Part shown: positions 8,399-62,586 of the stretch, piece after piece
How positions within the stretch are numbered: position 1 is the first letter of the stretch
How the letters are laid out: each line of letters begins with the position of its first letter
Assembly: GCA_043819555.1 (NCBI GenBank)
Contig: JBDREQ010000003.1
Coordinates: forward strand, 1 to 64,000
Direction: 5' to 3'
Source: Candidatus Zixiibacteriota bacterium
GTDB lineage: Bacteria; Zixibacteria; MSB-5A5; GN15; JAAZOE01
Length of the DNA: 64,000 bases
The notes under the pieces: model-generated
The model's input: only the letters and a program-made list of their open reading frames with translations
Told to the model about the DNA's origin: nothing
Database searches by the model: none
Made by a program: the position numbers and the translations under genes

Positions 8399-8430
8399 CA
8401 AAGCCCCCTTCCCAACCCCCTGTGCGATAG

Positions 8431-10346: not shown

Positions 10347-10504
10347 AAATTCTTGATACGGTTTATTGGCCGGTTTGTCAATTATAATCAAATTTGAAAA
10401 AATCGGTTTGGGCCCGGCAATTTACTGACTATATTCCATTCACGAAAGAGGTTTGATGAAGATATCCTGGATGTGTCTTTGCAAAGAAAACAGTAGAAAG
10501 CAAC

Positions 10505-10640: not shown

Positions 10641-10690
10641 AAAAACCCTCTATTTAGATATTTCCATCATACCCGAATGAGGTGCGAATA

Positions 10691-11617: not shown

Positions 11618-11623
11618 TTCATT

Positions 11624-29361: not shown

Positions 29362-29390
29362 TTGACCTTTTGACCGTTAAATGCTATACT
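29362..29390 (+). promoter_or_regulatory. Sigma70-type promoter, nearly leaderless, for the MFS gene
   Basis: TTGACC-N17-TATACT with extended TG; ATG at 29400. Confidence 0.65.
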
Positions 29391-29399
29391 TATAAGCAT

Positions 29400-32594: not shown

Positions 32595-32623
32595 TTGACA
32601 CAATTGGGTATTGTTATTACTAT
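32595..32623 (+). promoter_or_regulatory. Sigma70 promoter of the nuo operon
   Basis: TTGACA-N17-TACTAT. Confidence 0.75.
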
Positions 32624-32651
32624 GGCGGTCAACTATTTGGGACGGATGCAA

Positions 32652-33008
32652 ATGTTTGAAATATTCTACCCGATACTGGTTTTAGTTCTTCTGGCAAGCG
32701 GTGCGGCAGCGGCCATGTTTGTTTTGTCGATTATTGTCGGCAAAAGAACCAAAGGTGAAACCAAGTCTGAGCCGTATGAAAGTGGAATTGCACCGACCGG
32801 CGATACCAAAGAGAGATTTTCCATAAAATTCTATATGATTGCCATTCTCTTCATCGTTTTTGATCTGGAAGTGGTATTTTTATATCCCTGGGCAGTAATC
32901 TACAATGAATTAGCATTGTTTGGGCTAATAGAAATGGCAGTTTTTATCGCGATTCTGCTGGTTGGCTATATTTATGTTTTAAGAGCGGGAGCTTTGAAGT
33001 GGGATTAG
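32652..33008 (+). CDS. nuoA: NADH-quinone oxidoreductase subunit A
   Basis: [33 protein letters not shown]. Confidence 0.96.
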
Positions 33009-33487
33009 AAGAAAAAATCCCGGATGGGGTCATTCTATCCACCGTTGATTTCTTTGTCAACTGGTCGCGCAAATCGTCGATGTGGCCCTTTGGTTTCGGA
33101 CTGGCCTGTTGCGCGATAGAAATGATTTCGACCTTCGCTTCTCATTATGATCTCTCTCGTTTCGGAATGGAAGTAATGCGGCCATCGCCGCGTCAAGCCG
33201 ATTTGATGATTGTCGCGGGACGGGTTTCCAATAAAATGGCTCCGGTTATTAAACGGCTTTACGAACAGATGCCTAATCCCAAATGGGTCATTTCTATGGG
33301 AGCCTGCGCTTCGTGCGGCGGAGTTTTTAATAATTATGCGATATTGCAGGGTGTTGATCGGATAATTCCGGTTGATATTTACATCCCCGGATGTCCGCCG
33401 CGACCCGAACAACTGATTGACGGTATTATGAAGCTGCATCAGAAGGTAATGAAAGAGTCGCTGAAAGATAAAAAAGGAGCGGCCTGA
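32999..33487 (+). CDS. nuoB: NADH-quinone oxidoreductase subunit B
   Basis: [28 protein letters not shown]. Confidence 0.97.
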
Positions 33488-33524
33488 AATTAAAAAGGCC
33501 ACTTTATTTCTTGAATAGATTAGA

Positions 33525-34058
33525 ATGAATCAGGAAAAGCTGACAATTAAAGAACAGGAAGTGCTGAACGCGCTCAAAGATCAGTTCGGTGATGTCGTAT
33601 CCGGGCATGATAAGATTCGCGATCAACTATCGATATTTGTTGACAGCAGCCTGATATTCAATATCGCCCAGTTTCTAAAAGATAATGAAAAATGCGGATT
33701 TGAGATCATTTCCGATATTTGCGGGGTTGACTGGATCGACTGCCCGGAAATGCGATTCGAAATCGTTTATGTCTTTTACTCTGTTCGAAACAGTACGCGG
33801 ATATTAATTCGTACGACAATACCGGATGAGGAAGAACCAAAGATTCTATCGATACAGCCGGTTTATCCCGGTGCGGATTGGCTGGAGCGGGAAGTTTATG
33901 ATATGCTGGGTATCGTCTTTGAAGGACACCCCGATCTCAGGCGGATTATAACGCCTGAAGGATTGGAAGGCTGGCCGCATCGCAAAGATTTTCCATTGAC
34001 TTATGAAATGCCTCAATTCAGTCATAATAAAAATAAACCGCCGGAGATTATTAAATGA
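33525..34058 (+). CDS. nuoC: NADH-quinone oxidoreductase subunit C
   Basis: WLEREVYDMLGI.FEGHPDLRRI, HRKDFPL. Confidence 0.96.
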   Translation: MNQEKLTIKEQEVLNALKDQFGDVVSGHDKIRDQLSIFVDSSLIFNIAQFLKDNEKCGFEIISDICGVDWIDCPEMRFEIVYVFYSVRNSTRILIRTTIPDEEEPKILSIQPVYPGADWLEREVYDMLGIVFEGHPDLRRIITPEGLEGWPHRKDFPLTYEMPQFSHNKNKPPEIIK

Positions 34059-35236
34059 GCGCCGTCGCTTCTGAAAAAACGATGACGATTAATCTCGGGC
34101 CGCAACACCCCGCGACTCATGGCGTTCTGCGCGTTGTCCTTGAAATCGACGGTGAAACAATCATTAAGGCGACGCCTCATCTTGGATATCTGCATACCGG
34201 AATTGAGAAAACGGCTGAAAGCAAGCTTTATTATAAAGTAATCCCGATGACCGACCGCATGGATTATCTGTCACCAATGTCAAATAATCTTGGCTATGTT
34301 CTGGCGATCGAAAAGCTTTTGGGTATTGAAGTTCCGGAAAAAGTTAAATTTGCCCGAGTTCTCCTTTCGGAAATAACCCGGCTCAATAGCCATATTGTAT
34401 GGCTCGGCACACATGCTCTTGATGTCGGAGCCATGTCGATGCTGCTTTATACTTTTCGTGAACGCGAACTTATTATGGATGTATATGAAGCGGTATCCGG
34501 ACAGCGCATGATGTCGACGTATTTCCGTGTTGGAGGTCTGGCGCACGATTTACCTCTTGATTTTGACGAAAAGATCAAGAAAATCCTGAAAGTATTCCCG
34601 GAAAAACTTAAAGATTATGAGAGGCTTCTTTCGAACAACCGAATTTGGATTAAAAGATTAAGCGGAATTGGTACTCTAACGGCAGAAGAAGCTCTTGATT
34701 TATCCCTGACAGGACCGCTTTTGCGTTCGACCGGGGTTAATTATGATATCCGTAAGGCTCAGCCGTATTCAGGTTATGAAAAATTTGATTTTGATGTTCC
34801 CTTGGGCAAAACCGGTGATTGTTATGACCGTTATTTAATCCGGATGGAGGAAATGCGGCAATCGTTGAAGATTATCAAGCAGGCTCTGGATGGTATGCCT
34901 GAGGGGTCCTACCAGGCTGATGTTCCGGGTGTAGTATTGCCTCCCAAGCCAAAAGTTCTGACGGAAATGGAAGCCCTGATTTATCATTTCAAAATAATCA
35001 CAGAGGGCTTTAAGGTTCCGGCCGGTTCTTATTATCAGGCGATTGAGGCGCCCAAGGGTGAATTAGGCTATTATATGGTCTCTGACGGTTCGGCCAAACC
35101 GTATCGGATGCGAGTGCGTCCGCCATCGTTTATTAATTTGCAGGCTTTGGAACCGATGGTCCGAGGGGCTCTAATCGCTGACGTCATAACCTGTATTGGT
35201 TCGATAGATATTGTTCTGGGTGAGGTTGATCGATGA
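34055..35236 (+). CDS. nuoD: NADH-quinone oxidoreductase subunit D
   Basis: GPQHPATHGVLR, DRMDY, EAPKGE, DIVLGEVDR. Confidence 0.97.
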   Translation: MSAVASEKTMTINLGPQHPATHGVLRVVLEIDGETIIKATPHLGYLHTGIEKTAESKLYYKVIPMTDRMDYLSPMSNNLGYVLAIEKLLGIEVPEKVKFARVLLSEITRLNSHIVWLGTHALDVGAMSMLLYTFRERELIMDVYEAVSGQRMMSTYFRVGGLAHDLPLDFDEKIKKILKVFPEKLKDYERLLSNNRIWIKRLSGIGTLTAEEALDLSLTGPLLRSTGVNYDIRKAQPYSGYEKFDFDVPLGKTGDCYDRYLIRMEEMRQSLKIIKQALDGMPEGSYQADVPGVVLPPKPKVLTEMEALIYHFKIITEGFKVPAGSYYQAIEAPKGELGYYMVSDGSAKPYRMRVRPPSFINLQALEPMVRGALIADVITCIGSIDIVLGEVDR

Positions 35237-35724
35237 TATTGAAAGATACCACCATTCAGGAAATGAAGAAGCGCATGGAGCGTTACCCATCGCGCCGTTC
35301 AGCTATTTTGCCGGCCCTGACGGCGGCCTATAAGCAAACCGGGCATCTCAACGAAGAAATATATCGAGAGATTTCAAGGGCGATACAGGTTCCTTATGTT
35401 GAAATCGCTGAAGCGGCGACGTTTTATACCATGTTTCCCAAGAAGGAAGTTGGCCGGTATTTAATACATGTATGTCATAATATCTCCTGCTCACTGCGGG
35501 GAGCCGATAATATGCTTGAATATCTGCAGGAAAAGCTTGGAATTGGCATGGGCGATACCACCCCGGATAAAATGTTCACTCTGATTTCGGTTGAATGTCT
35601 GGGAGGATGTTCGGCGGCTCCAATGATGCAGATATGGGATACTTATTATGAAAATTTGACGCGCGATAAGATTGATAAGATTTTAACCGATTTGCGGGCT
35701 CATGCGGAAAAGGACAGTGTTTGA
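35233..35724 (+). CDS. nuoE: NADH-quinone oxidoreductase subunit E
   Basis: ATFY, CHNISC...ECLGGC 2Fe-2S motif. Confidence 0.96.
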   Translation: MILKDTTIQEMKKRMERYPSRRSAILPALTAAYKQTGHLNEEIYREISRAIQVPYVEIAEAATFYTMFPKKEVGRYLIHVCHNISCSLRGADNMLEYLQEKLGIGMGDTTPDKMFTLISVECLGGCSAAPMMQIWDTYYENLTRDKIDKILTDLRAHAEKDSV

Positions 35725-35725
35725 T

Positions 35726-37006
35726 ATGGAAAAAGTCCTTTTCAAATATATCGATGAACCGGAACAGTGCTGTATTGACAATTACATCAAGAATGGCGGT
35801 TATCGGGCAATTCAGAAGGTGTTCAAAGAGTTTACTCGTGAGAAAGTCATCGAAACGACCAAGCAATCGGGAGTACGGGGAAGAGGCGGGGCCGGATTTC
35901 CGGCCGGTCTTAAATGGGGTTTTGTACCTCAAAATACCGGAAAGCCGATTTATCTGTGCTGCAATGCCGATGAGTCGGAACCGGGAACCTGCAAAGACCG
36001 GGTGTTGATGGAACGAGATCCGCATATGATTATCGAAGGAATTATGATCGCATCGTTTGCCATCAATTGCCATCAGGCCTTTATTTATATCCGGGGCGAA
36101 TTTGTCTATCCTGCCCAGCGTGTTGAACAGGCAGTTGATGAAGCGTACAAGAAGGGATATCTCGGCAGGAATATTTTTGGTTCCGGTTATAATTTGGATA
36201 TTGTCGTACATACCGGAGGCGGGGCATATATTTGCGGTGAAGAAACTTCTTTATTGTCCTCGCTCGAAGGCAGGCGCGGCAATTCGCGTATCCGTCCCCC
36301 ATTTCCGGCCGTCAAAGGACTATATGGCTGTCCGACGGTTGTTAATAACGTCGAAACGCTGGCCAGTTTACCAAGCATTTTTAACAACGGCGTGGAATGG
36401 TATCGTTCGCATGGGACGGAAAAATCTCCGGGGACCAAAATATTTTCATTATCGGGAAACGTTAATCGACCGGGCAACTATGAAGTCGATCTGGGAACGC
36501 CTTTGTCTTATGTCATAAACGATCTGGGCGGCGGTATTCAGGATGGTCACAAGCTCAAAGCAATTATACCGGGCGGATCATCGACGCCTCTTTTGATGCC
36601 AGATCAGATAGATACGCCTCTTGATTATGAATCGATGGCCGAGGCCGGCTCGATGCTTGGCTCCGGTGCCATAATTGTCATCGACGAGCGAGCATGCATG
36701 GTTTGGGTAGCGATGAAGTTGATTAATTTCTATGCCCATGAATCATGTGGCCGGTGCACGCCTTGCCGAGAGGGTACGGCGTGGTTAAAACAAATTATTA
36801 ATCGCATCGAAAACGGCGATGGCCGTACCGGCGATATTGAACTGATCCTGGATATTTGCGACAATATTATTGGCCGGACGATTTGTCCTCTGGGGGATGC
36901 GGCGGTGATGCCAACCAGATCTATAATCGAGCATTTTCGGTATGAGTTTGAATATCACATAGAGCACAAAAACTGTAAAGTGAAAACGGATTATCCGTTT
37001 GTGTAA
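35726..37006 (+). CDS. nuoF: NADH-quinone oxidoreductase subunit F
   Basis: GRGGAGF, NADESEPG, YICGEET, ESCGRCTPCREG, CPLGD. Confidence 0.97.
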   Translation: MEKVLFKYIDEPEQCCIDNYIKNGGYRAIQKVFKEFTREKVIETTKQSGVRGRGGAGFPAGLKWGFVPQNTGKPIYLCCNADESEPGTCKDRVLMERDPHMIIEGIMIASFAINCHQAFIYIRGEFVYPAQRVEQAVDEAYKKGYLGRNIFGSGYNLDIVVHTGGGAYICGEETSLLSSLEGRRGNSRIRPPFPAVKGLYGCPTVVNNVETLASLPSIFNNGVEWYRSHGTEKSPGTKIFSLSGNVNRPGNYEVDLGTPLSYVINDLGGGIQDGHKLKAIIPGGSSTPLLMPDQIDTPLDYESMAEAGSMLGSGAIIVIDERACMVWVAMKLINFYAHESCGRCTPCREGTAWLKQIINRIENGDGRTGDIELILDICDNIIGRTICPLGDAAVMPTRSIIEHFRYEFEYHIEHKNCKVKTDYPFV

Positions 37007-37011
37007 ATAAA

Positions 37012-39567
37012 ATGGCTGGAAACGGAAACAACAACCAGATAACTTTTATCCTTGATGGCCGGCAGGTGACGGTCGCCAAGGGTACGACGATTCTTGAGGC
37101 GGCCCGGCAGGTTGGAGTCGATATTCCCTACTTTTGCTGGCATCCCAAGCTTGATTCAATCGGCGCTTGCCGGATGTGTTTGGTTTCCGTGGAAAAATCC
37201 CCCAAACCGGCAGTGGCCTGCGCGACCGAGGTAATGCCGGATATGATTGTCCGCACCGATACCGAAGAAATTATTAAGGCTCGCCGCGGCGTTTTGGAAT
37301 TTTTGCTTCTTAATCATCCTCTTGATTGTCCCACCTGCGATAAAGGCGGCGAGTGCGATCTTCAGGATAATGTTTTTCGATATGGCGCCGATAAATCACG
37401 CCAGACATTTACTCGTCTTCGCGTTCGTGATGACAGGACGATGCCGACTTTTGATGATAAGCGGATCGGTCCGGAAATCATCCGCAATATGGATCGCTGC
37501 GTTACTTGTTATAAATGCGTTCGTTTTAATAAGGAAATCGCCGGTGAATACGATCTCGGTTCTTATGAACGAGGCCATCATACGGTTATCGATACACCGC
37601 CGGGTGAGCAGATAGATAATTTTTATTCGGGGAATGTGGTTGAGATCTGTCCGGTGGGAGCTTTGACCAATACCGATTGGCGATATAAAGTCAGGGTATG
37701 GAAGACCGAACAGGCTGATTCAATTTGCAGTCACGACGCGGATGGTCAGAATATCAAACTATGGTATGATCATCGTCAGCTTTTCCGGGCTACATCAAGG
37801 CGCAATGATGACGTCGATGAAGGCTGGATTTGCAATGTGGCTCGGTACGGCTATCAATATATCAATAGCCCCGATCGCTTGAAAAAACCGATGATAAAAA
37901 AAGAGGGCAAGCAGGTTGAGGCATCGTGGGATGAGGCGATCGGTCTTATTGCGCGGCGGTTTAAGGAGATTAAAGAATCTAAAGGCAGCGTTTGCATTGC
38001 CGGATTAATAGGCGGAAACCAATCAAATGAAACCTGTTATCTCTTCAATAAATTTTTACGCGGAAAATTGCATTCCAACTCTATCGATTACCGGCTCGAA
38101 TATGCGGAATTGAAACATGACGATGAAAATGAAGCCTATGATAGTTTATTTTGCGCTCCTTGCAAGATAGCTGATTTGGAATCAGCCGATACGGTATTTG
38201 TTTTCGCAAGTAATTTTATTAAAGAGCATCCGGCTGTCAATCTGCGATTACGCAAGGCATATCGAACTGGAGGCGCAAAAGTATATACCGCTAACCCCTA
38301 TGAGACAAAATCGGCCGATATCTCCATTGATGAGTTGATCTATAATCCGGATATGGAAACGGTTTTTCTGGTGGCTGTAATCCACGCCTTAATAGACAAT
38401 AAGCTATGCAAAGGCATCGGCAATGAAAAAGCCGCGGAAATTAAAAATATGCTTGCCCCTGCAACATTGGGCGAAGCGGCAAATTTATGCGGAATCGAAG
38501 AAGTCAGAATTGTGAATCTGGCGCGGGCGCTTTCTGAAGCTGAAAATCTGTTTATTTTGGGTGGAGATTTTATTGCTCGATCTCCCAAACGGCATCGTAT
38601 TGCCAACGCCTTGAATAATCTGGCCAACTTATTGGGCGTTAGCGATCAAAAGGCGGCGATATTGGCATCAAATGCAAATTCAATGGGAGCCGCACGTTTG
38701 GGATTGCGTCCCAATATCCCCAAATCACTGGCAAATCTACTGGCCCAAAAATGGGGTCAAAAAATACCTGATTCTGATGGAGCCAACACATCTCAAATAT
38801 TCAAACGAGCCTTAGATGAGGAAATTGACGCGATATTTATAATGGGCGCCAATCCGGCAATGCGATATCCCGACGGTAATTTCGTCAACGCGGCTTTGGA
38901 TAAGCTTGATTTTCTGGTTGTCGCCGATTTGTTCGAGACAGCGACAAGCGCCAAAGCAGACGTGGTTTTACCATTGGCGGGCTGGTCGGAACAGGACGGA
39001 TCATATCTAAATCTCGAAGGCAGATATCAAAAGTTCTGTCAGGCTTTGGAGCCCGGGCATGGAATCAAAACCGGAGTTGAGATAATCAGGCTGATTGCCC
39101 GCGCCATGGATATGGAACTTGGTCTGGATAATGATGATGAATTGCAATCTGAAGCTCTTGAAATTATCAATGGTTATCAGCGCACGTCTCGAGATATAAA
39201 TGAATTTTACGCGGTTGAACAGCATCAAATACAGGAGCATGGGAAATATCCTTATCGGTTATATGTCGGCAATGATTTGCATCATTTTGGACATTATACT
39301 GAGCATTGCCCTTCGCTGATGCGATTTACATCCGAGCCTTATTTGGAAATATCTCCCAACCTGGCTGAGAGGTTGGGCATTGAAGAAGGCTCACTGGTTA
39401 GAGTTGAATCATCATCCGGGAAATTGGTATTGAAAGCGCATTTATCCGAGCATTTTGAAGGCGAAGTGTTGTTTATCCCGAATAATTTTGCCGCAACCGA
39501 AGTTAATATGTTGATGTCCAAAGAAAACGGCGGTTGGGCAAAAATAGAAAAACTGGACGATAAGTAA
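37012..39567 (+). CDS. nuoG: NADH-quinone oxidoreductase subunit G
   Basis: CWHP...GACRMC, HPLDCPTCDKGGECDLQ, CVTCYKC, CPVGAL; molybdopterin-oxidoreductase-like C-terminus. Confidence 0.95.
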   Translation: MAGNGNNNQITFILDGRQVTVAKGTTILEAARQVGVDIPYFCWHPKLDSIGACRMCLVSVEKSPKPAVACATEVMPDMIVRTDTEEIIKARRGVLEFLLLNHPLDCPTCDKGGECDLQDNVFRYGADKSRQTFTRLRVRDDRTMPTFDDKRIGPEIIRNMDRCVTCYKCVRFNKEIAGEYDLGSYERGHHTVIDTPPGEQIDNFYSGNVVEICPVGALTNTDWRYKVRVWKTEQADSICSHDADGQNIKLWYDHRQLFRATSRRNDDVDEGWICNVARYGYQYINSPDRLKKPMIKKEGKQVEASWDEAIGLIARRFKEIKESKGSVCIAGLIGGNQSNETCYLFNKFLRGKLHSNSIDYRLEYAELKHDDENEAYDSLFCAPCKIADLESADTVFVFASNFIKEHPAVNLRLRKAYRTGGAKVYTANPYETKSADISIDELIYNPDMETVFLVAVIHALIDNKLCKGIGNEKAAEIKNMLAPATLGEAANLCGIEEVRIVNLARALSEAENLFILGGDFIARSPKRHRIANALNNLANLLGVSDQKAAILASNANSMGAARLGLRPNIPKSLANLLAQKWGQKIPDSDGANTSQIFKRALDEEIDAIFIMGANPAMRYPDGNFVNAALDKLDFLVVADLFETATSAKADVVLPLAGWSEQDGSYLNLEGRYQKFCQALEPGHGIKTGVEIIRLIARAMDMELGLDNDDELQSEALEIINGYQRTSRDINEFYAVEQHQIQEHGKYPYRLYVGNDLHHFGHYTEHCPSLMRFTSEPYLEISPNLAERLGIEEGSLVRVESSSGKLVLKAHLSEHFEGEVLFIPNNFAATEVNMLMSKENGGWAKIEKLDDK

Positions 39568-40559
39568 TGGCTGATTTAACGTTTGCAGCTATAATAACCG
39601 CCAAAGTGATTGTGATATTCTTAGCTGTTTTGACAGGTGTCGCTTACTCCACCTGGCTGGAACGCAAACTGCTTGGCCATATTCAGCATCGTATGGGTCC
39701 GACTTATGTAGGGCCGTTCGGTCTTTTGCAGCCGCTGGCAGACGGATTAAAACTCCTATTTAAAGAAGATTTGGTGCTAAGCCGGGCGGAACGGATGATA
39801 CATGCCATCGCGCCTCTTATCGCATTTGTCCCGGGATTCCTGGCTTTTGCCGTGGTTCCAATCGGGGAACCAATCGAACTGTTTGGATATACTATTCCGC
39901 TTACAATTTCGGATTTAAATATTGGCATTCTATTTATTTTAGCGACGACGTCTCTTGGAGTTTATGGAATCGCCCTTGGGGGCTGGGCATCCGGCTCGAA
40001 ATACTCGCTTTTGGGAGGAATTCGTTCCTCGGCCCAGATGATTTCTTATGAAGTTTCATATGGACTGGCATTAGTTCCAATATTAATGATGGCCGGGACT
40101 TTTTCTTTAAAAGAAATTGTTGCCCAACAGGCATCGGTCTGGGATTGGTATGTATTTAAAAATCCGGTGGCCTTTTTGATTTTCTGGATTTGCGCCATCG
40201 CGGAAACAAATCGAGCGCCATTTGATATGGCCGAAGCGGAATCGGAGTTGGTCGGCGGGTATCATACCGAATATTCATCGATGCGTTTTTCGATGTTCTT
40301 TATTGGTGAATATGCCAATATGTTGACAGCCTCGGCGGTAGTGGTTACTCTATTCTTTGGCGGATGGAATGGACCGTTTTGGCCGGGTCCGTGGTGGCTG
40401 GCAGCCAAGATAGTTTTCTTCATGGCGATGTATATCTGGATTCGCGCAACATTCCCGCGCGTTCGTTATGATCAACTGATGAAAATGGGCTGGAAAGTGT
40501 TTTTCCCCATTGCCCTTTTAAACGTCCTGGTAACGGGAATAGTAATGTATTTGTGGTAA
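39567..40559 (+). CDS. nuoH: NADH-quinone oxidoreductase subunit H
   Basis: ERK, GLLQPLADGLKL, ETNRAPFD..EAESEL, RYDQLM. Confidence 0.97.
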   Translation: MADLTFAAIITAKVIVIFLAVLTGVAYSTWLERKLLGHIQHRMGPTYVGPFGLLQPLADGLKLLFKEDLVLSRAERMIHAIAPLIAFVPGFLAFAVVPIGEPIELFGYTIPLTISDLNIGILFILATTSLGVYGIALGGWASGSKYSLLGGIRSSAQMISYEVSYGLALVPILMMAGTFSLKEIVAQQASVWDWYVFKNPVAFLIFWICAIAETNRAPFDMAEAESELVGGYHTEYSSMRFSMFFIGEYANMLTASAVVVTLFFGGWNGPFWPGPWWLAAKIVFFMAMYIWIRATFPRVRYDQLMKMGWKVFFPIALLNVLVTGIVMYLW

Positions 40560-40560
40560 T

Positions 40561-41049
40561 ATGTGGCGATTATTTATTGACATAATCAAAACAACGGTCT
40601 TTGCTTTGCCGGTGGGGATGTATACATCCATTAAACACTTGTTTAAAAAACCGGTTACCAGGAAATATCCCCGTGAGAAAATGGAGATGGCTCCGCGCTA
40701 CCGGGGATTACATTATTTGGAAAGATATGATGATGGCACCGAACGCTGTGTTTGTTGCGGTCTATGTGCTGCGGCCTGCCCGGCCGACGCGATTTATATG
40801 GAACCGGACGAAAACGAAAAGGGCGAGCGGCTTGCCAAAGTCTATGAGATAAATATCATCCGGTGTATTTTTTGCGGATTTTGCGAAGAGGCTTGCCCCG
40901 AGGAAGCGATTTTCCTCGGACATGAATATGAGCTTGCGGATGACCAGCGCGATAAGTTTATTAGGAGCAAGGATGATATGCTGGTCGAGTATCCTCGCAA
41001 AGATCGGCCGTATAAAACGATTCATCGGCGGGTCCGGAAGCATTATTAA
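40561..41049 (+). CDS. nuoI: NADH-quinone oxidoreductase subunit I
   Basis: Two CxxCxxCxxxCP motifs. Confidence 0.96.
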   Translation: MWRLFIDIIKTTVFALPVGMYTSIKHLFKKPVTRKYPREKMEMAPRYRGLHYLERYDDGTERCVCCGLCAAACPADAIYMEPDENEKGERLAKVYEINIIRCIFCGFCEEACPEEAIFLGHEYELADDQRDKFIRSKDDMLVEYPRKDRPYKTIHRRVRKHY

Positions 41050-41070
41050 ATTGGATTTGGAGGTTAGTCT

Positions 41071-41574
41071 GTGACAGTAGAAATGATTGTATTCGCGGCC
41101 GCGGCGATTGTTGCCCTGGCTTCGGCAGTCATGGTCATTACGGTACGGAATCCGGTCGGTTCGGTATTGTATTTGATACTGTCGCTTTTGGCTCAGTCGG
41201 TTTTATATGTTCAATTGTCGGGCCTGTTCATCGCAGCATTTCTGGTGCTCGTTTATGGCGGAGCTATTCTGGTTTTATTCCTTTTTGTTATCATGCTTCT
41301 CAATATCAAATATGCTGATCTGGGACCGGATAGTTATCCGGGAATTAAACCGATGGCCTGGGTATTCGGGGCGGTTTTGCTGGCAGAGATGGTCTGGGTG
41401 TCGATGGGTGTTTCGACTGGCATACCGGCTACCAATGGAGATTTTGGATCGGTTCCGGAAGTAGCTCGGCTTCTCTATGGTAAGTTTGTTTTTCCTTTTG
41501 AATTGACATCAGTATTGTTATTGGCGGCGATTGTCGGCGCGGTTATTATGGCCAAAAAGGAGCTTTCGCGATGA
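41071..41574 (+). CDS. nuoJ: NADH-quinone oxidoreductase subunit J
   Basis: VYGGAILVLFLFVIMLL, PFELTSVLLLAAIVGA. Confidence 0.95.
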   Translation: MTVEMIVFAAAAIVALASAVMVITVRNPVGSVLYLILSLLAQSVLYVQLSGLFIAAFLVLVYGGAILVLFLFVIMLLNIKYADLGPDSYPGIKPMAWVFGAVLLAEMVWVSMGVSTGIPATNGDFGSVPEVARLLYGKFVFPFELTSVLLLAAIVGAVIMAKKELSR

Positions 41575-41873
41575 TACCGCTTGATTATTATATAATACTT
41601 TCCGCCTTTCTGTTTGCGACAGGTGTGATTGGCGTGGTTATTTCTCGAAATATGATTGTCATGTTCATGTCGATTGAGATTATGCTTAACGCCGGTAATC
41701 TGGCAATGATGGCTTTCTCAAGATATCTGCAAAATATGGACGGCCATGTATTTGTTTTTTTGGTGATGGCGGTTGCGGCGGCTGAAGCCGCTGTCGGGCT
41801 GGCGATTATTATTGCCGTGTTCCGAAATCGTGAATCGGTGAATTCCGATTCGCTTAATTTAATGAAATGGTAA
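41571..41873 (+). CDS. nuoK: NADH-quinone oxidoreductase subunit K
   Basis: SIEIMLN, VAAAEAAVGLA. Confidence 0.96.
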   Translation: MIPLDYYIILSAFLFATGVIGVVISRNMIVMFMSIEIMLNAGNLAMMAFSRYLQNMDGHVFVFLVMAVAAAEAAVGLAIIIAVFRNRESVNSDSLNLMKW

Positions 41874-43807
41874 ATATGTTTGATTATTTATACATAGTTC
41901 CCCTCCTGCCGCTTTTGGCTGTGCTTATAAATGGACTGCTGTTTAGCAAAATGTCTAAAACCGCTGTTCAAAGCCTTGCTGTTGGTTCGGTAGGATTATC
42001 ATTTGTCGCATCGGTTATATTGTTTTTTAATCTCTTGGGTTTTGATCCCGCGCATCGCACGATTGAGCAGGTATTATTTTCCTGGATTCCAGTCGGCTCG
42101 TTACAACTTAATATCGCTTTTTTATTAGATCCTCTTTCGGCCGTGATGATTCTGGTAGTATCCGGCGTCGGATTTTTGATTCATGTTTATTCAATTGGAT
42201 ATATGGCCCATGACCCGGGTGTAAAAAGATATTTTATTTATCTTAATCTATTCATGTTTTCAATGCTGACGCTAGTATTGGCAAATAACTTGATTCTGCT
42301 ATTCGTCGGTTGGGAAGGTGTCGGGCTCTGCAGTTATTTGTTAATTGGTTTCTGGTTCCACAAGAAATCTGCTTCAGATGCGGGCAAAAAAGCTTTTATA
42401 GTCAATCGCGTCGGTGATTTTGGTTTTATATTGGGCAGTTTTATTATTTTCTGGATGGCCGGAACGCTTGATTTTGTCGCGATGCGAAATGTTTCAACCG
42501 AAGTATTCACTATCGGCGGAACGACAATGGTTACAGCGGCTACGCTGCTTTTGTTCTTCGGCGCGACCGGAAAATCGGCCCAGATTCCTTTATATATCTG
42601 GCTTCCAGACGCGATGGAAGGCCCCACTCCGGTATCAGCATTGATTCATGCCGCGACAATGGTGACTGCCGGAGTTTATCTGCTGGTGCGTTTGAATTTC
42701 CTGTTCGTGATGGCTCCGACAACAATGCTGGTTGTCGCTATTGTCGGATGCCTGACCGCGTTTGTGGCGGCTACAATTGGGCTTGCCCAAAATGACATCA
42801 AAAGAGTATTGGCTTATTCGACTGTCAGCCAGCTGGGGTATATGATGATGGCCTGCGGAGTCGCGGCCTTCACCGCCGGCATTTTTCATCTCATGACCCA
42901 CGCATTTTTCAAAGCCCTATTATTTCTTGGTTCCGGTTCGGTTATTCATGCTATGTCGAATGAACAGGATATGCGTAAGATGGGCGGACTAAGGAAGCAG
43001 CTTCCAATTACATATTTGACTTTTTTAATGGGCACTCTGGCAATTGCGGGTATTCCCGGTTTTTCTGGATTCTTTTCCAAAGATGAAATTTTGTGGAAAT
43101 CATTTTCGTCAGGAAATGGCCATTGGATTTTCTGGGCGGCAGGCGTTGTTACCGCGGTATTAACCGCCTTCTATATGTTCCGATTATTGTATTTGACGTT
43201 TTATGGCGAGGGCCGTTATGACCAGCATACCGCCGATCATTTGCATGAATCACCAAAGGTTATGACAATGCCGCTGGTGATTCTGGCGATCCTGGCGGTA
43301 ATCGGCGGCTGGGTTGGGATTCCTCATGCTCTAAAGGGCGGCGCGCATTTTGAAAAATTTCTTGAACCGGTTATTCGCAATTACAGTTCACACACTCTTG
43401 GCGCCGATGCGCATCATGCTGCCTCTTTAGAATATGGCTTGATGGCTTTGACTGTAGGCTTGATCTTAATTTCAATATATCTGGCATGGTATTTTTATCG
43501 GAAAAATATCGCCAAAGCCGGCTCGTTGCGAGAAACATTCTCAGGGATCCACAAAACCTTGCTGAATAAATACTGGGTCGATGAATTTTACGGCTGGTCG
43601 ATTATTCGGCCGGTTGTCAATGGTTCTGTCTTCTTATGGAAAGTATTTGATGTTCTGATTATCGATGGTATTGCCAATGGGTTGGCCCAAATTACTCGCG
43701 ACGTGTCCGATAATTTTCGTAAAATGCAGACGGGTAATTTGCGGGGCTACATGGCGGTGTTTTTAATTGGAGCCGTTTTATTAATTGGTTTTTTGGTGGT
43801 GAGGTAG
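41867..43807 (+). CDS. nuoL: NADH-quinone oxidoreductase subunit L
   Basis: WEGVG, NRVGD, KSAQ.PL..WLPDAMEGPTPVSALIHAATMV, THAFFKA. Confidence 0.97.
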   Translation: MVNMFDYLYIVPLLPLLAVLINGLLFSKMSKTAVQSLAVGSVGLSFVASVILFFNLLGFDPAHRTIEQVLFSWIPVGSLQLNIAFLLDPLSAVMILVVSGVGFLIHVYSIGYMAHDPGVKRYFIYLNLFMFSMLTLVLANNLILLFVGWEGVGLCSYLLIGFWFHKKSASDAGKKAFIVNRVGDFGFILGSFIIFWMAGTLDFVAMRNVSTEVFTIGGTTMVTAATLLLFFGATGKSAQIPLYIWLPDAMEGPTPVSALIHAATMVTAGVYLLVRLNFLFVMAPTTMLVVAIVGCLTAFVAATIGLAQNDIKRVLAYSTVSQLGYMMMACGVAAFTAGIFHLMTHAFFKALLFLGSGSVIHAMSNEQDMRKMGGLRKQLPITYLTFLMGTLAIAGIPGFSGFFSKDEILWKSFSSGNGHWIFWAAGVVTAVLTAFYMFRLLYLTFYGEGRYDQHTADHLHESPKVMTMPLVILAILAVIGGWVGIPHALKGGAHFEKFLEPVIRNYSSHTLGADAHHAASLEYGLMALTVGLILISIYLAWYFYRKNIAKAGSLRETFSGIHKTLLNKYWVDEFYGWSIIRPVVNGSVFLWKVFDVLIIDGIANGLAQITRDVSDNFRKMQTGNLRGYMAVFLIGAVLLIGFLVVR

Positions 43808-43810
43808 GGA

Positions 43811-45382
43811 ATGGATAGCTGGATACTGACAATTGTTACTTTCCTGCCGATGGTCGGAGTTTTGGCGCTTCTCCTGATTCCCAAATCTCACCATATATCG
43901 TTGCGCCATACGACGCTGTTTTTTACCATTCTGACATTTGCCGCGTCTTTATGCCTGCTCTTTCGTTTCGACATTGCCGCCAGCGGGATGCAATTCGATG
44001 TCAATCTGCCATGGGTTGAACATTTTGGAATCGGTTATCATCTTGGCGTCGATGGCATCAGCCTGCTTTTGATTCTACTTACAACATTTTTGACGGCAAT
44101 TGCGGTTCTATCAACATTCAAGGCCGTCGAACATTCTCATCAGGGATTTTATATATCGATCCTGCTTTTGGAAACCGGTATGTTGGGCGTTTTTGCCGCT
44201 TTGGATCTGTTTTTGTTTTATGTTTTCTGGGAATTAATGCTGATTCCGATGTATTTCCTGATTGGTATCTGGGGCGGGAAACGACGCGTTTATGCCGCAA
44301 TCAAATTTGTTCTCTTTACGATGGTGGGTTCGCTTCTCATGCTGGTCGCGATTCTGGTTATCTATTTCCAATATCAAAGTATATTTGGTGAATATACCTG
44401 CGATCTTATTAAGATAACTTCCCTGCCTTTGGCGGCCAATTTACAGCTCTGGCTTTTTGCCGCATTTGGGCTGGCTTTTATAATAAAGGTTCCTATGTGG
44501 CCGTTCCATACCTGGCTTCCTGATGCTCACGTTGAAGCGCCTACCGCCGGTTCGGTAATTCTGGCCGGGGTTCTTTTGAAGATGGGGACTTACGGTTTCA
44601 TTCGTTTTTGTCTGCCGCTTTTCCCGATCGCGACTTTCGAATTTATGCCATTGATTTCTATTCTGGCGGTTATCGGAATTATTTATGGCGCGCTGGTTGC
44701 CATGGTTCAAAAAGATATCAAATCCCTGGTCGCGTATTCCTCAGTGTCGCATATGGGATTTATTATGCTCGGTATGATGGCAATGAATCTGCAGGGTATG
44801 CAGGGTTCCATCATTCAGATGATAAATCACGGCATATCAACCGGCGCTTTGTTTATTCTGGTTGGGATGATTTATGAACGCCGGCATACTCGCTTGATTT
44901 CAGAATATGGCGGTCTGGCGCATCGATTGCCTGTATTCTCGACACTCTTTATGATAGTCCTTCTCTCCTCAATCGGCGTACCCGGTACAAACGGATTCGT
45001 TGGCGAGTTTCTCATACTTCTGGGTACCTGGTCGTATAACAAAGTGTACGCGGTGCTGGCCGCTTCGGGAGTTATCTTTGCCGCATGTTATATGCTGTGG
45101 ATGTACCAGCGAGTATTCTTTGGCAAGTTGACCAACCCGGCCAATGAAAAGTTGCTGGATCTGGATTTGCGAGAGAAGATAGTTCTGATACCATTAGTCA
45201 TCATGATATTCTGGATTGGGATTTATCCTAAACCGTTTTTCACTCTCTTGGAACCCGCTGTTAAGGATGTGATTGCCCGGGTTGAGCAGGGCCGGGCTGA
45301 GTATGAAGCGTACAGTCAATTAACGGATGATGAAATTGCCGTCTCCAAGATGATTGTCGAAGCCACCAGGGAGAGCGAATAA
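43811..45382 (+). CDS. nuoM: NADH-quinone oxidoreductase subunit M
   Basis: DGISL, FWE.MLIP, KVPMWPFHTWLPDAHVEAP, AYSSVSHMG. Confidence 0.97.
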   Translation: MDSWILTIVTFLPMVGVLALLLIPKSHHISLRHTTLFFTILTFAASLCLLFRFDIAASGMQFDVNLPWVEHFGIGYHLGVDGISLLLILLTTFLTAIAVLSTFKAVEHSHQGFYISILLLETGMLGVFAALDLFLFYVFWELMLIPMYFLIGIWGGKRRVYAAIKFVLFTMVGSLLMLVAILVIYFQYQSIFGEYTCDLIKITSLPLAANLQLWLFAAFGLAFIIKVPMWPFHTWLPDAHVEAPTAGSVILAGVLLKMGTYGFIRFCLPLFPIATFEFMPLISILAVIGIIYGALVAMVQKDIKSLVAYSSVSHMGFIMLGMMAMNLQGMQGSIIQMINHGISTGALFILVGMIYERRHTRLISEYGGLAHRLPVFSTLFMIVLLSSIGVPGTNGFVGEFLILLGTWSYNKVYAVLAASGVIFAACYMLWMYQRVFFGKLTNPANEKLLDLDLREKIVLIPLVIMIFWIGIYPKPFFTLLEPAVKDVIARVEQGRAEYEAYSQLTDDEIAVSKMIVEATRESE

Positions 45383-45603
45383 TGCCAAACGTTAAAATGT
45401 TTACCAAGCCCGGTTGTCCTTATTGCGCAGCGGCGCGAGAGAATTACAACGACCGGGGCGTTGAGTTTGAGGATATCAACGTTATAGATAATCCTCGGGC
45501 ACAGGAAGAATTATTAAAGTTATCCAACGGTGAGAGGATTGTGCCTGTTATCGTAGATAGTGGTGAAGTAAAATTAGGCTGGGGCGGAAGCTGAGGGTTT
45601 TAA
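45382..45603 (+). CDS. Glutaredoxin-like probable selenoprotein (C-terminal GGS-U-G-F-stop, 'UXX-star' type)
   Basis: CPYC active site and cis-Pro VPV; TGA 45592-45594 followed by GGG TTT TAA; hairpin 45611-45625; TAATG coupling to nuoM. Confidence 0.8.
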
Positions 45604-45610
45604 CTCTTGA

Positions 45611-45625
45611 GCGGTCGTGAACCGC
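45611..45625 (+). promoter_or_regulatory. Putative bacterial SECIS hairpin
   Basis: GCGGT-cgtga-ACCGC; loop begins 21 nt after the TGA with G at its second position. Confidence 0.55.
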
Positions 45626-45649
45626 GCCTTTCGCTAACGGAGAAAAACT

Positions 45650-47104
45650 ATGTCGCAATTAAGTGCGGCCATCAATTTGAATATATTACTGCCGGAAATA
45701 ACTCTGCTTACGGCGGCTTTTATCCTATTGGTTTTTATTCCCCTGATGAAGCAAAAGATATTTTCAGTCGCATTGACAGTAATAGCCGCCCTGGCTTCCC
45801 TGATGTTCGTTGTCAAGTCATGGAATGATCCGCAGTCCGCTTATTTTGGCATGGTTGTCTGCGATAATTTCTCTCTGTTTTGCAAAGCTATTTTTCTATT
45901 CACCTGCGGTTCGGTCGCCATGCTATCGCGCGATTACCTGAAAAGCCGGGGATTGGATCGCCCCGAATATTATGCAATGCTATTGATATCTACGGCCGGT
46001 ATGATGTTCATGGTCTCATCTTCGGATTTGATGGTCATTTTTATCGGACTGGAAATCATGTCGCTCCCGCTTTATGTCCTGGCCGGCTACTTGCGAGATA
46101 ATCTGCGCTCAAACGAATCGGCCGCCAAGTATTTCTTTATGGGCGCCTTTGCTTCTGCCTTTCTTCTATATGGCATCGCGCTAGTATACGGCGGTACAGG
46201 GACAACCGATCTGGTCAAAATATATACTTCAACCGGTATTGCGATTCATCAGTTCCCAATGTATTTCCTGATTGGGGCGGCGCTGGTATTGATCGGTTTC
46301 GCCTTCAAAATCGCATCGTTCCCGTTCCATATGTGGGTGCCTGATGTATATCAGGGCGCCCCTACGCCGATTACTGCTTTTTTCTCAATTGGGCCAAAGG
46401 CGGCCGGAGTGGCAACTTTGTTGCGTATTTTTATGATTGGATTCTGGAGTGTATTTGATACCTACGGACCGCTCTTCTGGATGCTGGCCTTCCTGACCAT
46501 GACGGTTGGCAATATTCTGGCGTTGATGCAAATCGACGTCAAACGAATGCTGGCCTATAGTTCTATCGCCCATGCCGGATATCTATTGGTGGCGGTGACG
46601 GCTGGAAGCAATGACGCGGTTTCGGCGGCGCTGTTTTATCTGCTGGCATACAGCTTTTTCAATATGGGCGCCTTCGCGATTGTCACGCTAATAGAAAACA
46701 AAACCAAATCAAATGATATTCAATCGTTCCGGGGATTGAGCTCAAAACATCCCTGGTTGGCCGTGTTTTTAGCTTTATTCATGTTCTCGCTGGCGGGATT
46801 TCCACCGACGGCCGGATTTATGGCGAAATTTTATGTCTTCTCGGCGGCGGTGAAATCGGGTCTGGTCTGGCTGGTTGTCGCAGCTGTAATAAACAGTTTG
46901 ATATCCGTTTATTATTATTTTCGCCCCCTCAAGGTGGCTTTTTTTGATAAAGCAGAGGGCGATGATATTCCCGCCAAGGGTTTAACGCTTAGTCCGTTAT
47001 TTGTGATAGTCTTAATTTTGACCGGTTTGGGTTCAATTGGATTGGGGATATTTCCAGGTTATTTCATCGACCTCGCCGCGTCTTCTGGTCTGATAATTCT
47101 GTAA
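45650..47104 (+). CDS. nuoN: NADH-quinone oxidoreductase subunit N
   Basis: LE.MSL.LY, EAA-like SAAKYF, FK...FPFHMWVPDVYQGAP, KRMLAYSSIAHAGY. Confidence 0.96.
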   Translation: MSQLSAAINLNILLPEITLLTAAFILLVFIPLMKQKIFSVALTVIAALASLMFVVKSWNDPQSAYFGMVVCDNFSLFCKAIFLFTCGSVAMLSRDYLKSRGLDRPEYYAMLLISTAGMMFMVSSSDLMVIFIGLEIMSLPLYVLAGYLRDNLRSNESAAKYFFMGAFASAFLLYGIALVYGGTGTTDLVKIYTSTGIAIHQFPMYFLIGAALVLIGFAFKIASFPFHMWVPDVYQGAPTPITAFFSIGPKAAGVATLLRIFMIGFWSVFDTYGPLFWMLAFLTMTVGNILALMQIDVKRMLAYSSIAHAGYLLVAVTAGSNDAVSAALFYLLAYSFFNMGAFAIVTLIENKTKSNDIQSFRGLSSKHPWLAVFLALFMFSLAGFPPTAGFMAKFYVFSAAVKSGLVWLVVAAVINSLISVYYYFRPLKVAFFDKAEGDDIPAKGLTLSPLFVIVLILTGLGSIGLGIFPGYFIDLAASSGLIIL

Positions 47105-54256: not shown

Positions 54257-54799
54257 ATGGCAACCTTAGATTATAATCAAATGGTTCGGGCGATGACGTC
54301 CTGCGACGCAACTCAGGATGGAAAATTCTATGTCGGCGTGATATCGACCGGGATCTATTGCCTGCCGTCATGTCCGGCGCGGATTCCGCTTCTGAAAAAC
54401 GTTGTTTTCTTTGATAGCCGGGAAGAAGCAATCGCAGCTGGCTTTCGAGGATGCAAACGGTGCAAATCGGAAAGCTATCCAGATGTCCTGCCGGGATGGC
54501 TGCATGCCTTGATTGAATATATGACAGAGCAGAAAAAAGAACGCCTGACTGAACAGACACTTATGAAAATTACCGGTGTCGATATTTCGACCATCAGGCG
54601 GCATTTCAACAATCATCTCAGCATAACACCGTTGGCGTTTCATCGAAAACTCAGGCTCAATCATGCCCGGCACCTGATTGAACACGGAAGCGATTATCTC
54701 TCGGCGGCCTATGAATGCGGATGGGAATCATCGAGTGCGTTTCGAGAGGCATTCGATAATCAGTTTGGATTTCCGCCGGGGAGGATTAATGCTCGCTAA
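54257..54799 (+). CDS. adaA: Ada-type methylphosphotriester methyltransferase / AraC regulator
   Basis: DGKFYVGV.STGIYCLPSC, GFRGCKRC Zn site, AraC-like HTH. Confidence 0.88.
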   Translation: MATLDYNQMVRAMTSCDATQDGKFYVGVISTGIYCLPSCPARIPLLKNVVFFDSREEAIAAGFRGCKRCKSESYPDVLPGWLHALIEYMTEQKKERLTEQTLMKITGVDISTIRRHFNNHLSITPLAFHRKLRLNHARHLIEHGSDYLSAAYECGWESSSAFREAFDNQFGFPPGRINAR

Positions 54800-55322
54800 T
54801 CAAATCGTATATACCGAGTTTCCCAGTCCGATGGGGGATATGATTGCCGGCGCGACGGACAATGGCGTCTGTTTTCTTGAATGGCAAGATCGCGGCGGAG
54901 TCGAACGGATATTCAAAAGAGTTACCAAGCGATACAAATCCGAACCAGTCGCTGATAAAAACAATAATCCGCATTTGGCCAAACTGCAATCAGAACTCGA
55001 ATCGTATTTTGATGGCACGTTAAGAAAATTCAAAGTCAAAATGGATGTGACCGGAACGCCATTTGAAAAATCTGTCTGGGAACAGCTTCTCAATATTCCA
55101 TACGGCCAGACCCGATCATACGCCCAGATTGCTCAAGCTATCGGGAAACCTCAGGCGGTGCGGGCGGTCGGACGCGCCAACGGAGCCAATTATCTGGCGA
55201 TTGTGATTCCGTGCCATCGGGTAATTACATCGGCCGGGACATTGGGAGGATACGGTGGAAAAATCTGGCGCAAAAAACGGTTGCTGAATCTCGAATCCGG
55301 CGCAGAAGATCTTTGGGAATAG
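54789..55322 (+). CDS. ogt: Methylated-DNA--protein-cysteine methyltransferase
   Basis: GTPF, IPYG, RAVG.AN, IPCHRV, GGYGG. Confidence 0.93.
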   Translation: MLANQIVYTEFPSPMGDMIAGATDNGVCFLEWQDRGGVERIFKRVTKRYKSEPVADKNNNPHLAKLQSELESYFDGTLRKFKVKMDVTGTPFEKSVWEQLLNIPYGQTRSYAQIAQAIGKPQAVRAVGRANGANYLAIVIPCHRVITSAGTLGGYGGKIWRKKRLLNLESGAEDLWE

Positions 55323-62082: not shown

Positions 62083-62586
62083 ATGACGAAAATTCGGAGA
62101 TATTTTGAATCTAATCAATCAATCTTTTTGACGCATGTGACACATCAACGAAAACCTTTATTAATTGAAAACGTGAATTTATTACACTCGGCCATAAAAG
62201 AGGTTAATTTGGATTATCCGATTACAATAATCGCGTGGGTAATAATCCCGGACCATTTTCATATGATTATTGAGTCAAATTCTTCGAATGTGTCGGAATA
62301 TTTTAAAAGATTAAAATTGATATTTTCCGCCAAATACAGGATTAAGAATAAATTGAAAAGCGGTCGCATCTGGCAATATCGTTTTTGGGATCACATAATT
62401 CGAAATCAGGATGATTTGAATTCGCATATAGATTATATTCACTATAATCCGGTTAAGCATTGTTTGATAGATGACCCATTCCAATATAATCATTCGTCAT
62501 TAATGAGTTATTATAAAGAAGGCATATATGAGAGTGATTGGGGAGTCAATGAAGAGAAGTTATTCGATAGAGATTTTGGAGAATAA
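62083..62586 (+). mobile_element. REP-associated tyrosine transposase (RAYT / TnpA-REP)
   Basis: HUH motif PDHFH, WQ.RFWDH.IR, catalytic YIHYNPVKH; flanked by inverted GTAG-REPs. Confidence 0.93.

Follow-up and report, generated by a model that had tools for sequence, protein, structure and literature searches.

The window analysed here, a 64,000-nt stretch of contig JBDREQ010000003.1 from a Candidatus Zixiibacteriota bacterium, carries a nuoA–N operon for complex I, and a small glutaredoxin-like gene (grx) lies between nuoM and nuoN (Table 1). The ATG of grx (45382–45384) overlaps the nuoM stop by 1 nt (TAATG). Under translation table 11, the open reading frame of grx covers 45382–45594 and encodes 70 aa; it ends at an in-frame TGA that is followed by GGG TTT TAA. 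A hairpin begins 16 nt after this TGA, has an outer G–C pair (45609/45627) across an A–G mismatch, and is not followed by a T run in the window sequence. The original prediction, made from the sequence alone, had described a CPYC-containing gene between nuoM and nuoN with TAATG coupling and the end GGC-GGA-AGC-TGA-GGG-TTT-TAA, and our coordinates agree with it, as they do for a hairpin loop beginning 21 nt after the last TGA base. It had also placed a SECIS element mostly beyond the true stop. The hairpin itself is supported by covariation (see below), but it lies wholly, not mostly, 3′ of the true grx stop, in the short spacer before nuoN.

Table 1 Features of the nuoM–grx–nuoN region in the window.
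Feature	Position	Strand	Evidence and remarks
nuoA–N (14-subunit complex I) operon	32595..47104	+	NCBIfam match for each subunit A–N; complete; hosts the selenoprotein gene
nuoM	43811..45382	+	TIGR01972, 632 bits; stop TAA 45380-45382
Uxx-star glutaredoxin-like selenoprotein gene (grx)	45382..45603	+	73 codons + TAA; CPYC residues 12-15; Sec residue 71
In-frame TGA of grx, read as selenocysteine	45592..45594	+	TGA in 102/102 nuo-context loci
True stop TAA of grx	45601..45603	+	Sequence; third codon after TGA is a stop in 102/102 loci
SECIS-like hairpin	45609..45627	+	Stem 45611-45615 (GCGGT) / 45621-45625 (ACCGC); loop CGUGA 45616-45620
nuoN ribosome-binding site GGAG	45639..45642	+	Read from sequence
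nuoN	45650..47104	+	TIGR01770, 454 bits; start 46 nt past the grx stop

Selenocysteine decoding of grx

The genome encodes the machinery for selenocysteine (Sec) insertion: selA (486 bits) adjoins selB (322 bits) on contig C33, selD (389 bits) is on contig C63, and tRNA-Sec is found at 38574–38668 of contig C25. selD has an in-frame TGA of its own, with a hairpin at similar spacing. TGA was present at the Sec codon of grx in every locus inspected (30 + 80 + 17). In all 102 loci with nuo context, the reading frame continued for exactly two sense codons past the TGA before reaching a stop. The first of these codons specified Gly in 98 of the 102 loci, using all four GGN codons, and the second encoded Phe, Ile, or Tyr. 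By this codon usage, the two codons after TGA are evidently under amino-acid selection.

When the hairpin was aligned among 30 loci (alignment A1), 91.1% of the cells were paired and 7/7 pairs had changes on both sides, with the G of the loop invariant. Slid positions used as controls paired at only 22–49%, and 0 of 500 shuffles reached the observed covariation score. A scan of 45450–45750 against Rfam with E values up to 10 returned no SECIS family and three chance-level matches only. The covariation strongly supports the view that the hairpin aids UGA recoding in grx and is a putative SECIS.

Cys takes the place of Sec in the distant relatives P0173, P0197, P0206, and P0264, which end in C-x-x-stop and carry the monothiol N-terminal motifs CPHS, CSYS, CGYT, and CDAS. 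A Cys form at this position was not seen in the genomes of the nuo clade. A short ENA contig protein, P0018, which ends in GGGSCF, is a putative exception.

Public gene calls end grx at the TGA, giving 70-aa products labelled glutaredoxin or hypothetical protein. These calls, together with the lack of an Rfam family for the hairpin, would fit a gene for an ordinary 70-aa glutaredoxin, with TGA as its real stop and the hairpin as a terminator or mRNA stabiliser. Such an explanation is barely credible: it is opposed by the two sense codons and stop after TGA in 102/102 loci, the Gly specified through four synonymous codons, the complete Sec machinery, the absence of a T run after the hairpin, the existence of Cys-x-x-stop homologues, and a curated protein model, NF041212, that includes the tail.

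Identity and fold of the encoded protein

The read-through product of grx matched NF041212, the model of the Uxx-star family, with 110 bits (cut-off 66) over profile positions 1–70 of 70; the score in the genome scan was 102.6 bits. It carries the U-x-x-stop tail that belongs to this model, with Sec third from the end (GGS-U-G-F), and it matched Pfam Glutaredoxin (PF00462) at 55 bits. The score for Uxx-star sub-family 1 was above its cut-off (81.9 vs 72), but the product has CPYC and a single Sec, and the accessible text of a review (PMC13188914) gives UxxT and two Sec for this sub-family. Scores were below the cut-offs of sub-family 2 (76.6 vs 100) and sub-family 3 (77.8 vs 97), and also below those of the glutathione-dependent glutaredoxin of the Grx3 type (TIGR02181; 46.9 vs 90 bits) and the NrdH redoxin (TIGR02194; 33.8 vs 85.75 bits).

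CPYC was invariant in 30/30 grx sequences, and the protein alignment had 14 invariant columns and a mean column identity of 70%. The fold of the product was predicted with a pLDDT of 97.4 as b-a-b-a-b-b, ending without a C-terminal helix after strand 4, and no signal peptide was found. The best PDB matches to this model were small glutaredoxins and NrdH, with TM scores of 0.78–0.81: E. coli Grx3 (3grx/1fov), cGrx1 (7c10), and NrdH (1h75/4fiw), which share CPYC, the V-P cis-Pro position, and the thioredoxin-type core. In contrast to these classical proteins, the grx product lacks the C-terminal helix and the GG-x-D-D region and has a Sec tail, in a genome where gshB was not found.

These results go well beyond chance and strongly support the conclusion that window positions 45382–45603 are a real selenoprotein gene, encoding a Uxx-star protein with a minimal glutaredoxin fold. 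The 73-aa product ending in GGSUGF, as originally proposed, is upheld by the NF041212 match through the tail and by the conserved TGA, two codons, and stop. selA, selB, selC, and selD, whose presence had been left to be confirmed, all occur in the genome, and the homologues inspected have TGA, not TAA or TAG, at the Sec codon, or Cys in distant relatives. The family itself is already known: it is curated in NCBIfam (NF041212; sub-families NF041114, NF041211, and NF047338; fusion NF045501) and covered by the accessible text of PMC13188914. One public homologue (P0019) already bears the name of the Uxx-star family. The Zixibacterial proteins have the fold, length, and U-x-x-stop tail common to the family and differ from the rest in forming a clade fixed within the complex I operon.

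Conservation and loss in complex I operons of Zixibacteria

grx scored above the cut-off in 39 of the 41 genomes of the order and 191 of the 285 genomes of the phylum Zixibacteria. nuoM was located upstream of grx in 30/30, 72/80, and 16/17 of the loci inspected, and nuoN downstream wherever the contig continues. The synteny noticed in the window is thus conserved across the phylum and not peculiar to one assembly. The eight loci without nuo flanks were labelled as other phyla (Chloroflexota, Dehalococcoidales, Anaerolineae, and Oligoflexia). Uxx-star family members from other phyla occur next to unrelated genes or as fusions to a C_GCAxxG_C_C domain.

At least 11 GTDB families share the same nuoM–grx–nuoN slot and coupling. 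In 59 of 61 related loci, the tblastn-aligned grx start lay −13 to +20 nt from the nuoM stop, and in 64 of 65 the spacer between the grx stop and nuoN measured 30–58 nt. There is essentially one grx copy per genome of the order, located in nuo in each locus inspected. The gene was missing from a second nuo cluster that has 11 subunits and lacks nuoEFG, and occurred only in the 14-subunit operon; many lineages have it within the nuo operon, as would be expected of a complex I subunit. grx has evidently been inherited vertically for a long time within the operon for the 14-subunit, NADH-oxidising complex I of Zixibacteria.

At least three losses of grx have nevertheless occurred in nuo operons that stayed intact, indicating that the gene is dispensable in some lineages. 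In one genome (G010) it is deleted, leaving a remnant of 8 codons and the hairpin. It is also missing from the ortholog-type operons of families f17 and f19, which nest within grx-bearing clades on the NuoM tree and retain selB. Operons without grx have nuoM and nuoN in direct overlap.

We also considered, and rejected, a simple link to oxygen stress. Heme-copper oxidase was found in 0/3, 0/4, and 2/9 members of the grx-bearing families f6, f15, and f13, respectively, and in 11/14, 5/10, and 2/3 members of the gene-less families f17, f16, and f19. Since heme-copper oxidase by family does not follow the presence of grx, such a link is unsupported.

The direct nuoM–nuoN overlap in gene-less operons and the position of the hairpin within the 30–58-nt spacer just 5′ of nuoN could be taken as signs of a regulatory device, in which selenium supply or SelB at the hairpin tunes nuoN translation and the peptide matters little. 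We regard this as very improbable, considering the strong purifying selection on the protein (14 invariant columns and 70% mean identity) and on the two post-Sec residues. Our data also lend little weight to the Se-dependent coupling of nuoN translation suggested in the original prediction: nuoN is served by a GGAG of its own, and with just 9 nt separating the UGA from the real stop, failed Sec insertion would barely shift ribosome release.

The dispensability of grx in several lineages is also what would be expected of a general cytoplasmic selenoprotein, handling metals, metalloids, or small molecules and riding in nuo for expression only. The accessible text of PMC13188914 points in the same direction, suggesting that the Sec of the UXX-star family may be a metal ligand or meet unknown substrates, as do the unrelated neighbours and the C_GCAxxG_C_C fusion of members in other phyla. 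A mere passenger seems unlikely all the same, for a constant slot and coupling over at least 11 GTDB families would be unexpected for it, as would a single copy per genome of the order that is in nuo at each inspected locus.

Possible role as a redox helper of complex I

The original prediction had suggested a redox, Fe-S, or assembly partner of complex I. Our preferred reading, held tentatively with a probability of about 0.45, is that the grx product is a cytoplasmic thiol/selenol oxidoreductase that is made together with complex I and acts on it; its chemistry, reductant, and target are inferred. Attack would come from the C-terminal selenolate and would give a selenenylsulfide between Sec and Cys12 of CPYC, a bond that Cys15 would then resolve. 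The monothiol motifs of the C-x-x-stop forms and the UxxT with two Sec given for family 1 in the accessible text of the review argue for such a pairing of the C-terminal chalcogen with the first active-site Cys. The resulting disulfide may be re-reduced by the thioredoxin reductase system, which is proposed as the reductant because no glutathione synthetase was found: gshB, the sole glutathione route examined, was not detected in the 97%-complete genome, and trxB is present. As an outcome, cysteines of complex I would be kept reduced or repaired.

NuoM has 14 similarly oriented helices according to the accessible text of PMC3046159, and from this arrangement and the charge pattern of NuoM its C-terminus would be expected to face the periplasm. 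Given this topology and the absence of a signal peptide from the grx product, the neighbouring positions of the genes do not mean that the protein is tethered. A complex prediction for the NuoM of the window and the 70-aa form of the grx product, which is without the UGF tail, gave no verdict (score 0.00; mark 0.32).

Two further candidates were discarded. Cys267 of NuoM, considered as a target cysteine, was invariant in 46/46 orthologs from gene-bearing operons, yet it is kept in 3/4 gene-less ones and is situated close to the periplasmic end of a helix, so that it is not informative. An apparent in-frame continuity of NuoM and Grx in genomes G234 (L144) and G077 (L145) was not accepted as a natural fusion. 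The sister genome G235 is unfused, nuoM is split over two frames in G077, and NuoM is expected to end on the periplasmic side.

The strict nuoM–nuoN slot, the start coupled to the nuoM stop, the restriction to the 14-subunit operon, and the long vertical inheritance are also consistent with an accessory structural subunit, a fifteenth one on the cytoplasmic face near NuoM/NuoN, or with an assembly factor, such as a chaperone for the membrane arm or for cofactor insertion, whose redox centre would serve assembly and not turnover. We consider a role of this kind improbable, in view of at least three losses with the operon intact and of the invariant CPYC, cis-Pro, and Sec, which point to catalysis over scaffolding. 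The glutaredoxins known to hold Fe-S clusters, moreover, are of a class other than the CPYC type. It is distinctly unlikely that the grx product is a stoichiometric extra subunit docked near NuoM/NuoN with its selenolate servicing the thiols of the enzyme; if this were true, respiratory complex I would have its first selenoprotein subunit.

The redox helper proposed here can be compared with several known systems. Mammalian thioredoxin reductase has a C-terminal Gly-Cys-Sec-Gly redox tail. The grx product resembles it in having a Gly-rich tail with Sec near the C-terminus that could pass electrons from an internal dithiol to a substrate; however, its fold and size are unrelated, and its tail lacks a neighbouring Cys, so that CPYC would be the partner. 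Mitochondrial glutaredoxin 2 acts on complex I thiols and is a general, glutathione-dependent enzyme without Sec, encoded away from the complex I genes. The likeness to grx consists of the glutaredoxin fold and the link to complex I, whereas grx is located inside the operon and its product contains Sec. The nuo/nqo clusters of Rhodobacter and Paracoccus contain extra unidentified reading frames, small non-canonical genes; these are not known to encode glutaredoxin-fold proteins or selenoproteins.

The original prediction regarded the arrangement as undescribed. Within the searchable literature, which did not include Haft & Tolstoy 2025, this holds for the nuo context of the Uxx-star family, of which no description was found; it does not hold for the family, which is curated. 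A selenoprotein encoded inside a complex I operon was likewise not found in the searchable literature.

Because public calls truncate grx at the TGA and label it as plain glutaredoxin, the annotation of Zixibacteria is incomplete for both the selenoproteome and the set of complex I genes. Complex I is among the best-studied respiratory enzymes, and its bacterial accessory proteins are poorly known. Through the conservation described here, a curated orphan selenoprotein family gains a constant genomic partner throughout a phylum, which makes it testable whether the protein binds, repairs, or regulates complex I, and which hints that this enzyme has a redox helper so far unrecognised.

A selenocysteine glutaredoxin gene between nuoM and nuoN

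The coordinates and sequence letters of the original prediction, a selenocysteine glutaredoxin encoded within the complex I operon, were confirmed by re-reading the window sequence. The prediction had placed the hairpin mostly past the true stop; it does lie beyond the stop, not mostly but as a whole, 3' of the real TAA.

Features of the nuo operon, the glutaredoxin-like gene and other loci described here
Feature	Position	Remarks
nuoA–N, 14 subunits	32595-47104	each named by NCBIfam
nuoM	43811-45382	stop TAA, its final A being the first base of the small ORF's ATG
NuoM Cys267 codon	44609-44611	
Small ORF by table 11	45382-45594	70 aa; CPYC = residues 12–15
In-frame TGA	45592-45594	followed by GGG TTT
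Real stop TAA	45601-45603	
Hairpin	45611-45615 / 45621-45625	5-bp stem; CGUGA loop; extra G-C pair possible at 45609/45627
GGAG	45639-45642	
nuoN start	45650	
Second nuo cluster	contig C68, about 2000-11900	same genome, outside the window; 11-subunit type (A–D, H–N) without nuoE/F/G
MFS transporter ORFs	29370-29798 and 29773-30807	overlapping; each matches MFS transporter models
Ada-type Zn-binding/HTH ORF	54257-54799	overlaps the next ORF by ~120 nt
O6-methylguanine methyltransferase DNA-binding domain ORF	54678-55322	
IS200-like (Y1 transposase) ORF	62083-62586	close to the window end

Elsewhere in the window, the two MFS ORFs may represent a single gene broken by a frameshift. The true start of the methyltransferase ORF is probably further downstream, and no in-frame stop was seen within its DNA-binding domain.

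The 73-aa product, with TGA read as Sec, scored 110 bits (cut-off 66) over all 70 positions of the profile NF041212 (Uxx-star family glutaredoxin-like (seleno)protein), and contained a glutaredoxin domain (Pfam). It did not pass the profiles of Grx3 (46.9 vs cut-off 90) and NrdH (33.8 vs cut-off 85.75), and fell under the cut-offs of Uxx-star sub-families 2 and 3. The cut-off of sub-family 1 was passed (81.9 vs 72); however, this sub-family is listed in the accessible part of a 2026 review (PMC13188914) as UxxT with two Sec, whereas the window protein has CPYC and one Sec. Therefore, we filed it under the umbrella Uxx-star family only. An AlphaFold model built from 30 homologues (pLDDT 97.4; every residue ≥ 90) showed a b-a-b-a-b-b fold without the usual last helix, and the closest PDB structures were small glutaredoxins and NrdH (TM 0.78–0.81). 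A genome scan found one Uxx-star copy in the window's genome. In two related genomes, weaker second Uxx-star-like matches of ~46 bits, under the cut-off and each with one in-frame TGA (G023:C450:2808-2996 and G033:C16:127100-127288), may represent another glutaredoxin-like selenoprotein of some Zixibacteria.

Decoding of the in-frame UGA

The window's genome (97% complete) carries adjacent selA and selB on contig C33, together with selD and tRNA-Sec. Its selD (G000:C63:76059-76982, minus strand) is itself a selenoprotein gene with one in-frame TGA, which lies in a GAGU motif; its hairpin begins about 16 nt after its own UGA, a spacing similar to that of the glutaredoxin hairpin.

Two overlapping samples together gave 102 nuo-context loci (77 distinct 21-mers around TGA). 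In all 102, precisely two sense codons stood between TGA and the next stop. The first codon encoded Gly in 98 loci, with all four GGN codons used, and the second encoded Phe (84), Ile (15), or Tyr (3). If TGA were the stop, these amino acids would never be made, and the constraint on both codons thus indicates selection on translated residues. An alignment of 30 loci placed the hairpin start ~16 nt past TGA. Pairing was kept in 91.1% of cells, with both-side changes at 7/7 pairs (44 cells); none of 500 shuffles reached the observed covariation score, and sliding the 3' partners by 1–3 columns gave pairing of 22–49%. Across these loci, the loop G was invariant and usually followed by U; in E. 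coli, an apical-loop G-U is the SelB contact. No Rfam family matched the hairpin.

The nuo clade yielded no Cys ortholog. In a library of 1.84 billion proteins, the distant relatives P0173, P0197, P0206, and P0264 end in C-x-x-stop, which gives the classic Cys/Sec pairing at the family level. Another homologue of 73 aa (P0018, from a 546-nt ENA contig) ends in GGGSCF with Cys one position past the expected Sec; this may reflect either a Cys form that occurs in nature or a sequencing artefact. These results indicate that the nuo-operon gene is a real selenoprotein gene.

Conservation and loss of the complex I location

The gene scored over the cut-off in 39 of the 41 genomes of the order, including the window's genome, with one TGA each. 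nuoM lay upstream in 30/30 loci of the order and nuoN downstream in 29/30, the exception being a contig end. A wider scan of 185,579 species representatives gave 267 relatives. Among the best 80 of these 267, which we inspected, TGA was present in 80/80 and nuoM lay upstream in 72/80; nuoN followed in 71 of these 72, the remaining locus being cut by a contig end. The eight loci without nuo flanks were labelled Chloroflexota, Dehalococcoidales, Anaerolineae, or Oligoflexia; of six examined, three were C_GCAxxG_C_C domain fusions and three lay amid unrelated genes. The relatives' records were mostly labelled Candidatus Zixiibacteriota, and four otherwise-labelled ones match the coordinates of genomes in the window's order. 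Phylum-wide, 191/285 genomes exceeded the cut-off, and 17 additional loci, picked mainly because no stop was seen inside the tabulated match, all had TGA and nuo flanks. The aligned glutaredoxin start lay −13 to +20 nt from the nuoM stop in 59/61 loci, and the spacer to nuoN was 30–58 nt in 64/65. In the second nuo cluster of the window's genome, nuoM and nuoN overlap directly and the selenoprotein gene is absent; its subunits are 40–49% identical to most window subunits, but C, I, and J only 28–35%. The complex I location is therefore conserved, old, and specific.

The two gene-less genomes of the order both keep selB. In one locus (L123, G010:C1:18528-22913), the first eight codons of the gene are fused straight to the hairpin between nuoM and nuoN in an otherwise intact orthologous operon, which looks like a clean internal deletion. 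Three families of the phylum lack the gene (f16, 0/10; f17, 0/14; f19, 0/3) and retain selB throughout (10/10, 14/14, and 3/3, respectively) as well as ortholog-type NuoM. nuoM abuts nuoN in the three f17/f19 loci spanning the junction, and two f16 loci end before it. A NuoM tree of 54 rows (HSPs under 380 aa dropped; paralog as outgroup) placed the gene-less rows in three separate places within gene-bearing clades. The simplest reading is a single ancient gain with three or more losses.

In two loci, L144 (G234:C198) and L145 (G077:C4), no stop separates nuoM from the glutaredoxin-like gene, and the two share one reading frame. A natural NuoM-Grx fusion was rejected: the continuity of L144 is missing in sister genome G235, and nuoM of L145 is split over two frames. 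Moreover, PMC3046159 describes L, M, and N as each built of fourteen helices in a similar orientation and places the lateral helix of L on the cytoplasmic side; from this orientation and the charge pattern, a periplasmic C-terminus is expected for NuoM, which also argues against natural fusions. Recent mutation or misassembly probably explains both continuities.

NuoM Cys267 was invariant in 46/46 gene-bearing orthologs and kept in 3/4 gene-less ones; this position is Ser in 4/4 paralogs of the 11-subunit cluster.

The Uxx-star family itself has been described and curated before. In public annotations of the nuo clade, most gene calls end at TGA and are named glutaredoxin or hypothetical protein; one carries the Uxx-star name. 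A full-text literature search found no paper in which the Uxx-star family, or a glutaredoxin-like selenoprotein of any kind, was connected with nuo or complex I; a 2025 work by Haft and Tolstoy reportedly treats selenoprotein neighbourhoods and may already describe this context. The link was also absent from the accessible parts of the review PMC13188914 and the 2008 GOS paper PMC2398784. The nuo-located gene is a new, phylum-wide genomic variant of the known family.

Possible role at complex I

No start codon lies upstream in the frame of the small gene, leaving no room for a signal peptide, and hence the protein is of cytoplasmic type. CPYC, V-P at the cis-Pro position, and Sec are invariant. 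The gene shares one mRNA with those for the membrane arm of the NADH-oxidising complex I. The working pair would consist of the selenolate at the C-terminus and Cys12, the first Cys of CPYC. Indirect support comes from the distant Cys forms, whose N-terminal motif retains its first Cys alone, together with the C-terminal Cys, and from sub-family 1, which is listed in the review with Sec at both sites. Cys15 would then resolve the selenenylsulfide. Thioredoxin reductase is encoded in the window's genome and, as no gshB was found in this 97% complete genome, would probably supply the electrons. Mammalian thioredoxin reductase has a Gly-Cys-Sec-Gly arm, which the Sec tail of the window protein recalls. 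The proposed pairing with complex I recalls mitochondrial Grx2.

Against a dedicated role at complex I stand the repeated gene loss that left the operon intact, a heme-copper oxidase distribution that does not match that of the gene, and the periplasmic side expected for the NuoM C-terminus.
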